Shown: one piece after another, positions 2,491-41,589 of the stretch
How the letters are laid out: every line of letters begins with the position of its first letter
Numbering within the stretch: the first letter of the stretch is position 1
Sequence record: OP870146.1
Length of the DNA: 64,000 nucleotides
Direction: 5' to 3' (one strand)
Origin: Escherichia phage vB_Eco_F27
Made by a program: the position numbers and the translations under genes
Notes under the pieces: model-generated
Database searches by the model: none
Told to the model about the DNA's origin: nothing
The model's input: only the letters and a program-made list of their open reading frames with translations

Positions 2491-4807
<2,317 letters not shown>

Positions 4808-37177: not shown

Positions 37178-37486
37178 TTACATAAGAAGCAAACGTTCTA
37201 CAGGAGTACCATCAACCGAAATTACTTTATCAAGGCGGAAAGAACGCCACTGACCTAACTCGGTATCGAATGCTCGAACTGATTCACGAGGTTCAGAACG
37301 AACTTCTGTTGATGGGTTACTATTTTCATATTTGACTTCAAGTTCATCGCGGGAGGCAAACATCGTACGAACATCACCGTTAGCCTTTTCAAATACAACA
37401 CAATGAACGCCTACAGACAGAATAGTTTTAATACGTTCACGAAGAACCATAGTTTCTTGTTCAGTTAAAATCATATTATTCACCAC
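37178..37486 (-). CDS. Hypothetical protein (T4 31.1 position)
   Basis: 102-aa ORF between cd and gene 31. Confidence 0.5.
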   Translation of the reverse strand: MVNNMILTEQETMVLRERIKTILSVGVHCVVFEKANGDVRTMFASRDELEVKYENSNPSTEVRSEPRESVRAFDTELGQWRSFRLDKVISVDGTPVERLLLM

Positions 37487-38057
37487 AAAAGTTTCGGATT
37501 TGTTCCCAATTCAGAGAACGAAGATTATTACGAGAGTACTGAATTACTTCAATACCGGCTTGTTTTAGAATGTCTGCCCAATTTTCAGGAGATCTGTCAT
37601 ATAATTCTGCGTATACAACCTTTTTAATACCTGACTGCGTAATAGCTTTAGTGCAATCAGGACATGGAGAAAGTGTCGTATACAACGTAGCACCTTCAAT
37701 AGAATTACCTTTACGAGCTGCAAACAAAATTGCATTCAATTCCGCATGGATTTCGTTATTAGCAGACCATGCACTATGAGCAGCCCGATGTTCTTTAGCC
37801 AAAACAAAATTATCCACCCGTCCAAATGCTGTAGTGCCTTCTTTAGGCCCAGCAACGATGACCGGGCTTGGTTTATTCTTCAACCAACCGTTTTCGGATG
37901 CATGTTCGCAACAGTTTGTACCACCTGAAGGAGAGCCATTATAACCTGTAGAAATAATGCGTCCATCTTTTTCAATGACGGCACCAACTTTCCATGAACA
38001 ACATTTTGATTCTTGAGAAATCAAATAAGCAATTTGAAGATATGTGCTAGCTTTCAT
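37476..38057 (-). CDS. cd: dCMP deaminase
   Basis: 193 aa (T4 Cd 193 aa); zinc-binding deaminase motifs HAE and PCxxC. Confidence 0.9.
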   Translation of the reverse strand: MKASTYLQIAYLISQESKCCSWKVGAVIEKDGRIISTGYNGSPSGGTNCCEHASENGWLKNKPSPVIVAGPKEGTTAFGRVDNFVLAKEHRAAHSAWSANNEIHAELNAILFAARKGNSIEGATLYTTLSPCPDCTKAITQSGIKKVVYAELYDRSPENWADILKQAGIEVIQYSRNNLRSLNWEQIRNFCGE

Positions 38058-39049
38058 TATTGAACCTTATTAATATAAGTTAACAGCTCTTTAGTTTGTT
38101 CCCAACTGATGCACGCATCGGTAACGGAAACGCCATAGGACATATTATCAGAAATTTTTTGATTTCCTTCATGTAGGAATGATTCTATCATAATTCCTTT
38201 GACCAAATCATTAGCTGCTAAATTTTTACCAATACCAATTTGATTGCTATAATGCCCAGCAGCGTTTGCATGGCTACAGTCAACCATTACATAATGATTC
38301 AGACCTACTGCACTTGCTTTGTTAGAAGCTTCTTGAATATCAGAAGAATGATAGTTCGGGCCGTTAGTCCCGCCACGCAATACGATATGCGTATTCTGAT
38401 TACCTTCAGCTTCAACAATGCCTACAGTACCATCGACGTCCATACCCATATACCGATGAGGCCAGGCGGCACTATACATCGCGTCTGTAGCTACTTTAAT
38501 AGAACCATTGGTTGCGTTCTTGAAGCCTACGCACATCGGTAGACCTGAAGCAATTTCACGATGTGTCTGACTTTCAGTCGTACGGGCGCCAATAGCAACC
38601 CATGAGAAAATACCAGAAAGATACTTAATCGTGAATGGGTCTAATACTTCAGTTGCTAATGGAAGTCCCATACGTAGAAGTTTACGACACAATGTTCGTG
38701 CAACTATAAGACCGTGGTTCATATCAAAACTTCCATCAAGATATGGATCATTTACAAGACCTTTCCAACCTACGGTAGTTCGAGGCTTTTCAAAATAAAC
38801 GCGCATCACTAACAGAACATTAGGAAGACGAGTTTGAAGTTCAGCCAGACGTTTGCCGTATTCAACAGCAGCAATAGGGTCATGAATTGAACAAGGACCT
38901 ACAACAATAAGTTTGCGTGGGTCTTCACCGTTCATAATCGAATTAACTTGTTCGCGATGAGAAGCCACTTGTGATGCGTAAGCTTCCGACAAAGGAATAA
39001 TCTCAGCCAGTTCTTTTGGAGAAATAAGTTTTCCGACGACAGGTAACAT
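38057..39049 (-). CDS. 3-deoxy-7-phosphoheptulonate (DAHP) synthase, class I AroG/F/H-like
   Basis: 330 aa; roughly half the residues match E. coli AroG as recalled, including GPCSIHD, VMRVYFEKPRTTVGWKG, IGARTTESQ(T/V)HRE, GFKN, ESxLxEGNQ, ITDACI; 1-nt overlap with the cd start. Confidence 0.85.
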   Translation of the reverse strand: MLPVVGKLISPKELAEIIPLSEAYASQVASHREQVNSIMNGEDPRKLIVVGPCSIHDPIAAVEYGKRLAELQTRLPNVLLVMRVYFEKPRTTVGWKGLVNDPYLDGSFDMNHGLIVARTLCRKLLRMGLPLATEVLDPFTIKYLSGIFSWVAIGARTTESQTHREIASGLPMCVGFKNATNGSIKVATDAMYSAAWPHRYMGMDVDGTVGIVEAEGNQNTHIVLRGGTNGPNYHSSDIQEASNKASAVGLNHYVMVDCSHANAAGHYSNQIGIGKNLAANDLVKGIMIESFLHEGNQKISDNMSYGVSVTDACISWEQTKELLTYINKVQ

Positions 39050-39169
39050 AACAATCCTTAGGAGATATAAACAGATTCTGATTCAACAATACCTTTAACC
39101 GGATTAGACAGGCTAAGTTGGTAGTGCTCAGATTTATGACCATTCTCGATAGTAATGAGATAGCTCTCA

Positions 39170-39406
39170 TTATAGTGTTCCATATACTCGAGTTGCTTCA
39201 ACTAAACCGTCACTGCCTAATTTAAGGCTAGTAATCTGGTCACCATCTTTAGGATTAACAATTATGAGAAAAGAACGTGGAGATTCTTGAATAACTCGTA
39301 ATGTTGCATCCTGGAAACGTTCAGACACTTTATTGATGAGTGCTTGAGCAAATTCTTTTACTTTAATCTGAAATTCGTGTACTGTAATTGGGTTTTCACT
39401 TAGCAT
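39170..39406 (-). CDS. Hypothetical protein
   Basis: 78-aa ORF with early promoter and conserved leader at 39407-39464. Confidence 0.45.
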   Translation of the reverse strand: MLSENPITVHEFQIKVKEFAQALINKVSERFQDATLRVIQESPRSFLIIVNPKDGDQITSLKLGSDGLVEATRVYGTL

Positions 39407-39436
39407 TTCTATTTCCTCATTTGTTGGTAGAGTTAT

Positions 39437-39464
39437 AGTATCACAACTCCACCATGTTGTAAAC
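39437..39464 (-). promoter_or_regulatory. Early promoter upstream of ORF 39170-39406
   Basis: GTTTAC-N16-GATACT, then leader CTACCAACAAATGAGGAAATAGAA before the ATG. Confidence 0.55.
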
Positions 39465-39466
39465 CA

Positions 39467-39742
39467 TTAAATTGCTTTGCATTCAATTTTTTGTGTACCG
39501 AAATTGATATCACATTGGATAACTAAATCGCCGTCAAGATCAAATACCACTATGACGTGCGCAGACCCAGGAAGAAGAGTAATAGCAATAGAATCTACTT
39601 GGTCTGGGAGCAAAGCATTGAGTACATGAGTTACTTGAGCATGAACTCTGAGTTCGGCTGCATTATCAAGCACTTCAAACATATTATTAGCAATAATCTG
39701 ACTGAAGACTACCTTTACAATTTCAGAATAAGTTGGGAACAT
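39467..39742 (-). CDS. Hypothetical protein
   Basis: 91-aa ORF in the cd-pseT cluster. Confidence 0.45.
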   Translation of the reverse strand: MFPTYSEIVKVVFSQIIANNMFEVLDNAAELRVHAQVTHVLNALLPDQVDSIAITLLPGSAHVIVVFDLDGDLVIQCDINFGTQKIECKAI

Positions 39743-39749
39743 AATTACC

Positions 39750-39974
39750 TCAATGCACAGTATTTACTTTAACTCGAACAACAAATCGCTCGGTTGGTTC
39801 ACCTACAGGAACAAACTCTACATGATATTCACCTTTGTAACGAGTATTCAGATCATTACGAATTCCTGCGAGTTTGTTGATTAATGTAGGACTCATATTA
39901 AGTCCCACTAGTTTACGAAGCATTTTGTATGCTTCGTCTTCGATTTCATGATGTTTATCGTACATAGTTTTCAT
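39750..39974 (-). CDS. Hypothetical protein
   Basis: 74-aa ORF in the cd-pseT cluster. Confidence 0.45.
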   Translation of the reverse strand: MKTMYDKHHEIEDEAYKMLRKLVGLNMSPTLINKLAGIRNDLNTRYKGEYHVEFVPVGEPTERFVVRVKVNTVH

Positions 39975-40145
39975 TTAACCATTCAATTGCCCGGTCGACG
40001 TTATCAAATATACCGCCGTCCAAACGTTCTTCATGCTCATAGTCCAGCACATCAATACCGAACTGTCCATTTACTAAAGGCCAGGCTACAAACAAATATT
40101 CTTTATGCTGTTCGATGGCCTCAATCACTTCATATAATCGTTTCA

Positions 40146-40146
<1 letters not shown>
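39955..40146 (-). CDS. Hypothetical protein
   Basis: 63-aa ORF overlapping its neighbours on both sides. Confidence 0.4.
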
Positions 40147-41232
<1,086 letters not shown>

Positions 41233-41233
<1 letters not shown>

Positions 41234-41532
41234 TATTTTATTCCTAAGAAAGTTTCAAGAATACGAATGTTATGCTCGCGCCGGTCTTTATTAATTTCAG
41301 CAACGTTTTTATTAATTGACGTACTTCTAACGTTTGAAGAAATAAATTTAATCATATGACTTTTGAGTTGTTGCAAATCCAACCCTTTTTCTTTAGCAGC
41401 TTTACGAAGAGCTTTACCTGCTTCATCTAGTGCCTTTGCTGCATCTTTGTCATAATTGACAAGTGACATTCCACGGCAGATATCAATATACTCATCAGAC
41501 CGTTTGATGTAATTCTCTAGTAATGTTTTCAT
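41233..41532 (-). CDS. Hypothetical protein
   Basis: 99-aa ORF. Confidence 0.45.
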
Positions 41533-41589
41533 TTAGATTTCCTCAATTATCCATAGGAGCATTATACTCTGCTCCCGAGAGTTTGTAAA

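Follow-up and report, generated by a model that had tools for sequence, protein, structure and literature searches.

Four small genes between pseT and a DAHP synthase gene of Escherichia phage vB_Eco_F27 as probable Mosigvirus copies of long-catalogued T-even accessory genes

The stretch analysed here (the window) comprises 64,000 nt of DNA from Escherichia phage vB_Eco_F27 (sequence record OP870146.1), and all coordinates refer to the whole of it. The genes of the part between pseT and cd are all read from the minus strand. Exactly four open reading frames (ORFs), encoding 63, 74, 91 and 78 amino acids (aa), were listed on this strand at positions 39170–40146, between pseT and a DAHP synthase gene. 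In the direction of transcription, the order is pseT, the 63-aa, 74-aa and 91-aa ORFs, a gap of 60 nt, the 78-aa ORF, a 41-aa ORF, the DAHP synthase gene and cd (Table 1). The stop codon of pseT and the ATG of the 63-aa ORF share the sequence TAATG, the overlap between the 63-aa and 74-aa ORFs amounts to 20 nt (11 nt if the latter begins at its fourth codon) and only 7 nt separate the 74-aa ORF from the 91-aa ORF. The initial annotation, made from the sequence, had described four tightly packed ORFs on the early strand; their coordinates and sizes agree with the ORF list and the junction sequences, and a fifth ORF, of 41 aa (39183 to 39058), had been overlooked.

The four ORFs very probably represent, in Mosigvirus, four distinct accessory genes that were catalogued long ago in T-even phages: cd.4, RB69ORF227c, cd.3 and cd.2. 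A blastp comparison with the T4 proteins (NC_000866) assigned the 63-aa ORF to Cd.4 (52% identity over 63 aa, E = 8e-27), the 91-aa ORF to Cd.3 (80%, E = 2e-50) and the 78-aa ORF to Cd.2 (65% over 75 aa, E = 1.5e-32), and gave no T4 counterpart for the 74-aa ORF. The latter is 100% identical over 74 aa to RB69ORF227c (AAP76126) and is placed between cd.4 and cd.3, as in phages RB69, JS98 and S16. All four ORFs match PHROG families with E values from 1e-33 to 1e-41 (phrog_2360 at 4.7e-33 for the 63-aa ORF, phrog_3609 at 3.5e-41 for the 74-aa ORF), and the gene table of the CRISPRi-ART study (PMC11879866) gives three of these four PHROGs for T4 cd.4, cd.3 and cd.2. In Pfam, the 91-aa ORF belongs to DUF7355 (PF24051; 118.9 bits against a cutoff of 27, residues 1–91 on positions 1–93 of 93) and the 78-aa ORF to DUF7320 (PF24005; 122.4 bits against a cutoff of 27, residues 1–77 on positions 1–77 of 78). 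The 63-aa ORF is located downstream of pseT and upstream of cd.3, as expected for the T4 Cd.4 family. No ORF of the four has a significant blastp match to T4 Cd.1 or Cd.5, the best E values being 0.14 (74-aa ORF and Cd.1) and 1.9 (63-aa ORF and Cd.5), and both cd.1 and cd.5 are absent from vB_Eco_F27.

A megablast search with positions 38000–41300 returned 449 phage records, the best of them being Mosigvirus genomes with 97–98% identity (including JM10, mogra and the O157 typing phages). Hence, judged by nucleotide identity, the phage is an RB69-like T-even (Mosigvirus). The RB69 record of 2003 already annotates pseT, cd.4, RB69ORF227c, cd.3 and cd.2 in that order; the four genes are known as conserved hypothetical T-even genes and are no longer a novel find. 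The alternative that the initial annotation had itself named, that these frames are ordinary homologues of T4 cd.1–cd.5, holds for cd.4, cd.3 and cd.2, and the fourth is a named RB69 ORF without a T4 homologue. Its description of the region as the least T4-like part of the window applies only to ORF227c, the 41-aa ORF and the DAHP synthase gene. It does not apply to cd.4, cd.3 and cd.2, and the identity of cd.3 to T4 (80%) even exceeds that of pseT (74%).

The individual genes resemble their reference copies closely. Cd.3 is the most T4-like protein of the cluster, being equal in length to T4 Cd.3 (NP_049831, Y13F_BPT4) and sharing the identical N-terminal 16-residue motif, with no notable difference. 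The 63-aa protein has the acidic core motif and the C-terminal ENYVR in common with T4 Cd.4 (NP_049832, Y13G_BPT4); however, in T4 the gene cd.5 is located between pseT and cd.4, whereas in vB_Eco_F27 cd.4 abuts pseT. The 78-aa protein falls into the same length class as T4 Cd.2 (NP_049830, Y13E_BPT4) and is also encoded directly downstream of a conserved early promoter, but in T4 the next gene after cd.2 is cd.1, and in vB_Eco_F27 a cd.2 fragment comes next, then the DAHP synthase gene. The 74-aa ORF has the same neighbours (cd.4 and cd.3) as RB69ORF227c and does not differ from it. The proteins of Mosigvirus AV110 at this locus are 92–100% identical to those of vB_Eco_F27.

The start codons of two of the genes deserve mention. 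For ORF227c, the first ATG (39974) gives 74 aa and the ATG at the fourth codon (39965) gives 71 aa; the latter is annotated in AV110, JS98, S16 and PG7 and is the sole start in more distant homologues. At the beginning of cd.2, the MLSENPIT of the window (39395–39410) corresponds to the T4 ATG frame MLLSEKPI... and not to the annotated GTG start MKNRLLL... (T4 locus 4251–4348). From this alignment, either a 1-nt frame difference or a mis-annotated T4 cd.2 start seems possible. The length of T4 cd.2 is 240 nt in the T4D annotation of the HIDEN-SEQ study and 231 nt in NC_000866.

Table 1. Features of the pseT–cd region of phage vB_Eco_F27 and its surroundings.
Feature	Coordinates	Strand	Evidence
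Strong promoter-like site	41561..41589	-	TTTACA-17-TATAAT, 11/12 in consensus scan; upstream of 99-aa ORF
pseT (polynucleotide 5'-kinase/3'-phosphatase)	40146..41045	-	Pfam HAD_PNKP 2.8e-59 and AAA_33; phrog_505; 74% identity to T4 PseT
cd.4 homologue, 63 aa	39955..40146	-	T4 Cd.4, 52%; phrog_2360
RB69ORF227c homologue, 74 aa	39750..39974	-	RB69ORF227c, 100%; phrog_3609
cd.3 homologue, 91 aa	39467..39742	-	T4 Cd.3, 80%; DUF7355; phrog_1695
Early sigma-70-type promoter in the cd.3–cd.2 gap	39435..39463	-	GTTTACA, 17-nt spacer, TG-n-TACTAT; 9/12 with TG in consensus scan
Conserved leader; Shine-Dalgarno GAGGAAA 7 nt ahead of the cd.2 ATG	39407..39434	-	Alignment with T4 and RB69
cd.2 homologue, 78 aa	39170..39406	-	T4 Cd.2, 65%; DUF7320; phrog_1504
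41-aa ORF (phrog_15876), probable junction chimera or scar	39058..39183	-	DUF7320 positions 43–76
1,094-bp insertion relative to RB69 (cd.2 remnant and DAHP synthase gene)	38061..39154	-	blastn
Class-I DAHP synthase gene	38057..39049	-	DAHP_synth_1, E 7.4e-75
cd (dCMP deaminase)	37476..38057	-	Named in ORF order

The conservation of the four genes was assessed at the level of both occurrence and selection. A tblastn search found cd.4 in 686, ORF227c in 337, cd.3 in 913 and cd.2 in 795 phage records, all of them T-even phages of enterobacteria. The ORF227c family occurs in Mosig-, Dhaka-, Gelderland-, Karam- and Marfavirus, with more distant members in T-evens of Serratia, Edwardsiella and Yersinia, and is absent from Tequatrovirus. 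The ratio of non-synonymous to synonymous divergence (dN/dS; Nei-Gojobori method) was calculated against orthologues from the RB69, JS98-like, T4-like, S16, PG7, AmPh_EK29 and Serratia 4S loci. It amounted to 0.23–0.42 for cd.4, 0.07–0.17 for ORF227c (0.31 against the most distant homologue), 0.07–0.31 for cd.3 and 0.06–0.46 for cd.2, with 0.10–0.27 for the neighbouring pseT, at saturated synonymous divergence. The strongest constraint at the protein level was observed in the 16 N-terminal residues of Cd.3 (MFPTYSEIVKVVFSQI), which are invariant while synonymous sites vary, and in the Cd.2 helix FAQALINKVS, also conserved with varying synonymous sites. The alignment of the Cd.4 family reveals a conserved core, EYLF..W/Y...G(I/L)DVLDYE.E..(V/L)DGG.F.

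Expression is documented through T4. According to RNA sequencing and proteomics of T4 infection (PMC9697503), cd.2 yields an early RNA and an early protein, and cd.3 and cd.4 yield early RNAs and middle proteins; T4 Cd.2, Cd.3 and Cd.4 were all detected by mass spectrometry, with rising intensity. By analogy with these orthologues, expression can be taken as shown for three of the four genes.

These data bear directly on the idea that the four ORFs are frames that arose by chance in AT-rich intergenic DNA, or pseudogenes in decay. The ORFs are indeed short and have no annotated function, and the 41-aa ORF alone probably is of this kind. For the other four, the dN/dS values well below 1 at saturated synonymous divergence, the hundreds of full-length homologues, the mass spectrometric detection of the T4 orthologues of cd.2, cd.3 and cd.4 and the confident AlphaFold models of ORF227c and Cd.3 leave this idea with virtually no probability, and it may be considered already refuted. 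Since all four match PHROG families, occur in hundreds of records and evolve with dN/dS well below 1 at saturated synonymous sites, they are, on comparative sequence evidence, genuine protein-coding genes under purifying selection.

The suggestion that the last of the four ORFs has its own early promoter and a conserved leader is borne out. The promoter in the cd.3–cd.2 gap, found in the consensus scan, aligns almost base for base with the corresponding gap of T4, where it is annotated as early promoter Pe133295, and is identical in RB69. It shows the GTTTAC-type −35 element, 17-nt spacer, TAnnAT −10 element and orthologous position of a T4-type early promoter, and is followed by the GAGGAAA of the leader. 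A predicted early promoter of cd.2 is therefore supported by orthology to T4 Pe133295. The terminator scan found no terminator-like site on the minus strand after this promoter, and so the 41-aa ORF, the DAHP synthase gene and cd would be transcribed from it as well. Nor did the scan reveal a terminator-like site on this strand between the strong promoter-like site at 41561..41589 and position 39170. The promoter-like site is the probable start of a transcript running over pseT, cd.4, ORF227c and cd.3.

In order to describe the variability of the cd–pseT interval, a gene-order map of 15 loci was compiled. The genes cd.5, cd.4, ORF227c, cd.3, cd.2 and cd.1 keep their relative order, which is conserved in at least five T-even genera, and single genes have been gained or lost independently. 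T4 has no ORF227c; cd.4 was not detectable in PG7 and AmPh_EK29, both of which possess pseT; in one T4-like contig (L005), cd.3 is truncated and neither cd.4 nor cd.5 is present; and in T4 and S16 cd.5 is placed between pseT and cd.4. The interval had been described as a variable region of T4-like phages, and the map confirms this between T-even genera, yet the four genes belong to its conserved part. That they are distributed independently of one another speaks against an obligate complex of the four proteins.

The gene order also invites the reading that the block encodes regulators or accessory subunits that serve the neighbouring nucleotide and RNA-repair enzymes, i.e., PseT, dCMP deaminase and the dNTP-synthesis complex. 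This would explain the conserved position of the block, which stands between pseT and cd in every genus examined; moreover, cd.4 is translationally coupled to pseT by the TAATG overlap and the three T4 orthologues belong to the early/middle expression class of pseT and cd. However, adjacency weighs little because T-even genomes are syntenic throughout. The presence of pseT without a detectable cd.4 in PG7 and AmPh_EK29, the absences in T4 and in the T4-like contig and the interposition of cd.5 in T4 and S16 all speak against such a dependence. In addition, HIDEN-SEQ highlighted the PseT orthologue in one host, but not its neighbours. We regard a role as accessory subunits as very unlikely.

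The properties of the predicted proteins were analysed for clues to function. Cd.4 and Cd.3 are acidic (isoelectric point 4.45 for both) and ORF227c is basic (9.0). The AlphaFold model of ORF227c (pLDDT 86, the per-residue confidence) has a predicted helix-helix-strand-strand arrangement, and that of Cd.3 (pLDDT 88, pTM 0.80) two helices packed on a four-stranded antiparallel sheet. In Cd.2, the conserved helix FAQALINKVS is followed by beta strands. The initial annotation had recognised no motif in any of the four proteins. This holds insofar as Pfam offers only domains of unknown function, although two of the ORFs do fall into such families. Sequence searches of the PDB with the four ORFs gave no match, no PADLOC profile matched any of them at E ≤ 1, and NCBIfam at E ≤ 1 gave only a sub-threshold MoaD hit (13 bits against a cutoff of 49.5). 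A homologue search in 5.8 billion proteins with ORF227c, Cd.3 and Cd.2 returned only 12–46 T-even sequences and no informative fusions. With Cd.4, a HMMER search of 1.84 billion representatives gave 16 matches, of which the real relatives are phage-type proteins of 46–148 aa. Literature searches by DUF, PHROG and ORF names found nothing, and those by the names cd.2, cd.3 and cd.4 were dominated by papers on Crohn's and coeliac disease.

Several candidate similarities were rejected. The B5 domain (PF03484) seen on two ORF227c matches lies on chimeric metagenome ORFs, and the multi-stretch matches of Cd.4 to proteins of 516–2984 aa, a low-complexity repeat protein and MucBP adhesins, are spurious. 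The spacing of the acidic DGG segment of Cd.4 is, on inspection, unlike the DxDxDGxI pattern of an EF-hand or calcium loop. The likeness of Cd.3 (91 aa in total) to inositol monophosphatase (IMPase) covers only a subdomain of 86–87 residues at 3–12% identity; the FDLDGD of Cd.3 differs in spacing from the IMPase metal motif, only one Asp is conserved in the family and T4 has GLDAE at this place.

The structural neighbours of the predicted folds, namely, gp25/TssE, the IraD anti-adaptor, Tctex dynein light chains and the N-terminal subdomain of IMPase, share 3–17% identity and no sequence relationship with the phage proteins. Their catalytic or assembly motifs are absent here, and ORF227c has two strands only. 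On the basis of the models, the likeness is one of fold class and not of family membership.

A common origin might also be considered, in which cd.2, cd.3 and ORF227c, together with the 41-aa fragment, would be ancient tandem paralogues of one helix-plus-beta-meander domain that diverged beyond sequence recognition. The alignment of the three family profiles with hhalign gave probabilities of 0.3–1.5%, and there were no Pfam cross-matches at E ≤ 1. Queried with the ORF227c model, Foldseek returned only the ORF227c family from BFVD, apart from a DUF7355 protein at E 0.28 with a TM score of 0.48. Tandem paralogy thus receives no support from sequence and was rejected as such. Since the fold is common, convergence would account for the similarity equally well, and we consider descent from a single domain improbable.

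Genetic screens of T4 show that the orthologues of three of the genes are not required under laboratory conditions. Knock-down of T4 cd.1–cd.5 by CRISPRi-ART had no fitness effect (PMC11879866). In HIDEN-SEQ, 18 of 19 TA sites were hit in cd.2, 20 of 20 in cd.3 and 17 of 17 in cd.4, and all three are classed as 'Non-essential' (10.1101/2025.11.20.689424). For the T4 orthologues, cd.2, cd.3 and cd.4 are thereby shown to be dispensable on laboratory E. coli.

The initial annotation had pointed out that variable regions of this kind often hold host-takeover and anti-defence factors, and this suggestion found no positive support. Besides the absence of a CRISPRi-ART phenotype, no cd.x gene is among the conditional hits that the HIDEN-SEQ paper names, which concern RexAB, RnlAB, CBASS, DarTG1/2, minimal medium and uropathogenic isolates; in the one comparison table consulted, the log2 fold change of the cd.x genes was 0.04–0.20 with an adjusted p of 1 (10.1101/2025.11.20.689424). 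In Mosigvirus AV110, a screen of 45 early proteins of unknown function yielded six growth inhibitors, Gp94, 135, 204, 208, 214 and 263 (10.64898/2026.09.14.751387). The locus corresponds to coding sequences (CDS) #49–53 of the AV110 record, and the paper's gp95 (MotA) is CDS #92; since the offset in numbering is at most 3, none of the six inhibitors lies at the locus, membership of the four genes among the 45 being unconfirmed. ORF227c, which has no T4 homologue, was probably outside the tested set. The defence screens covered few defence systems and hosts.

That at least one of the four would nevertheless be a dedicated anti-defence or host-takeover factor appears unlikely, though less so than the accessory and paralogy readings above. 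The genes are small, early-expressed, dispensable on K-12 and variably present between genera, and neighbouring T-even genes of a like kind proved to be anti-defence factors, as reported in the HIDEN-SEQ study for nrdC.1 (Septu), tk.4 (DarTG2) and bas37_0203 (Druantia III) (10.1101/2025.11.20.689424). Also, pseT itself counters a host anticodon nuclease, according to the note on rnlA in the T4 record. Against this stand the HIDEN-SEQ results and the location of the AV110 inhibitors given above, and the strong conservation of the sequences, which are not fast-evolving (dN/dS of ORF227c about 0.07–0.17). A narrower form of the same idea, that one of the small proteins specifically inhibits a host defence system or process outside any screen so far, is similarly doubtful. 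The best candidates for such an inhibitor would be ORF227c, absent from T4 and the most strongly constrained, and Cd.3 with its invariant 16-residue N-terminal helix. If the idea is true, the inhibitor would use its conserved helix surface to act on a target restricted to natural isolates of Enterobacteriaceae.

The reading that we favour, tentatively and as a possibility that stays short of the probable, is that the four proteins are separate, conditionally useful binding proteins acting stoichiometrically. It is proposed because the proteins are small, carry no catalytic motif, include two with a predicted interaction-type fold and have been gained and lost independently. Each gene would encode a free-standing, soluble, single-domain alpha+beta protein of 7.6–10 kDa without a catalytic or cofactor motif. 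The predicted fold of Cd.3 and ORF227c, with two N-terminal helices on an antiparallel sheet, is mostly found in protein–protein interaction modules (gp25/TssE, IraD, Tctex, pilins). Each protein would act on a different host or phage macromolecule, and the advantage would be limited to particular hosts or conditions. Candidate interfaces are the surfaces conserved best: in Cd.3 the invariant helix at the N-terminus, in Cd.2 the helix FAQALINKVS and in Cd.4 the acidic stretch DVLDYE..E..DGG.F.

Downstream of cd.2, the sequence departs from RB69. A blastn comparison with RB69 is collinear (96%) down to position 39155 and again from 38060, and both ends of the intervening insert match RB69 locus 4304–4322. 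The insert is flanked by an imperfect repeat of about 15–19 bp, ATAATGA(A/G)AGCTA, around the overlap of the cd.2 stop and the cd start. The 41-aa ORF at this junction matches DUF7320 (E 1.1e-6). Over 33 aa it shares 55% identity with the C-terminal half of the Cd.2 protein from Klebsiella phage AmPh_EK29 (Marfavirus), versus 30% with the resident Cd.2, and the junction alignment shows that its first five codons are the 3' end of the resident cd.2 read out of frame. AmPh_EK29 has a DAHP synthase gene of 67% identity at the equivalent position, immediately after a cd.2 of full length. The 41-aa ORF was found in 139 records, all Mosigvirus at ≥92% identity; an equal number of records cover at least 80% of the 3.3-kb megablast query. 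By these alignments, the 41-aa ORF is probably a non-functional recombination scar, and the DAHP synthase gene can be said to have entered Mosigvirus together with the 3' half of a foreign, Marfavirus-like cd.2. Within Mosigvirus, synonymous divergence is 0.004–0.009 for the DAHP synthase gene versus 0.33 for pseT, and the near-zero value suggests a recent, single acquisition.

Other insertions and small genes were noted in the surroundings. Dhakaviruses carry an extra 184-aa ORF (orf212) between cd.3 and cd.2, at the promoter-bearing gap (JS98 locus L011, 4065–4619, with equivalents in L007, L009 and L010), for which only a weak, sub-threshold DOMON-like Pfam match was found; it is another insertion at the same hotspot. 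Upstream of pseT (41042–41532, minus strand) there are ORFs of 63 aa (phrog_8683) and 99 aa (phrog_2364), which correspond to RB69ORF230c and 231c. These have no T4 homologue in the compared cd–pseT.2 region, and the 99-aa family also occurs in T4-like and JS98-like contigs at 55–68% identity. The two ORFs are 'non-T4' to at least the same degree as the four-ORF cluster. Directly after cd, at 37178–37486 on the minus strand, a 31.1 homologue is located, and T4 gene 31.2 is absent, likewise in RB69. The 31.1 homologue is labelled 'tail fibers protein' in several records, which looks like an annotation-transfer error.

Annotations of these genes in T4 and RB69 date back two decades, Pfam and PHROGs list them as families of unknown function, and the find matters little as such. 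Their wide conservation and purifying selection despite laboratory dispensability are typical of T-even 'dark matter'. The scar of cd.2 and the DAHP synthase gene represents a dated insertion that is modestly informative about the movement of auxiliary metabolic genes from one T-even genus to another. The function of any one of the four genes would apply to hundreds of therapeutic-candidate phages.

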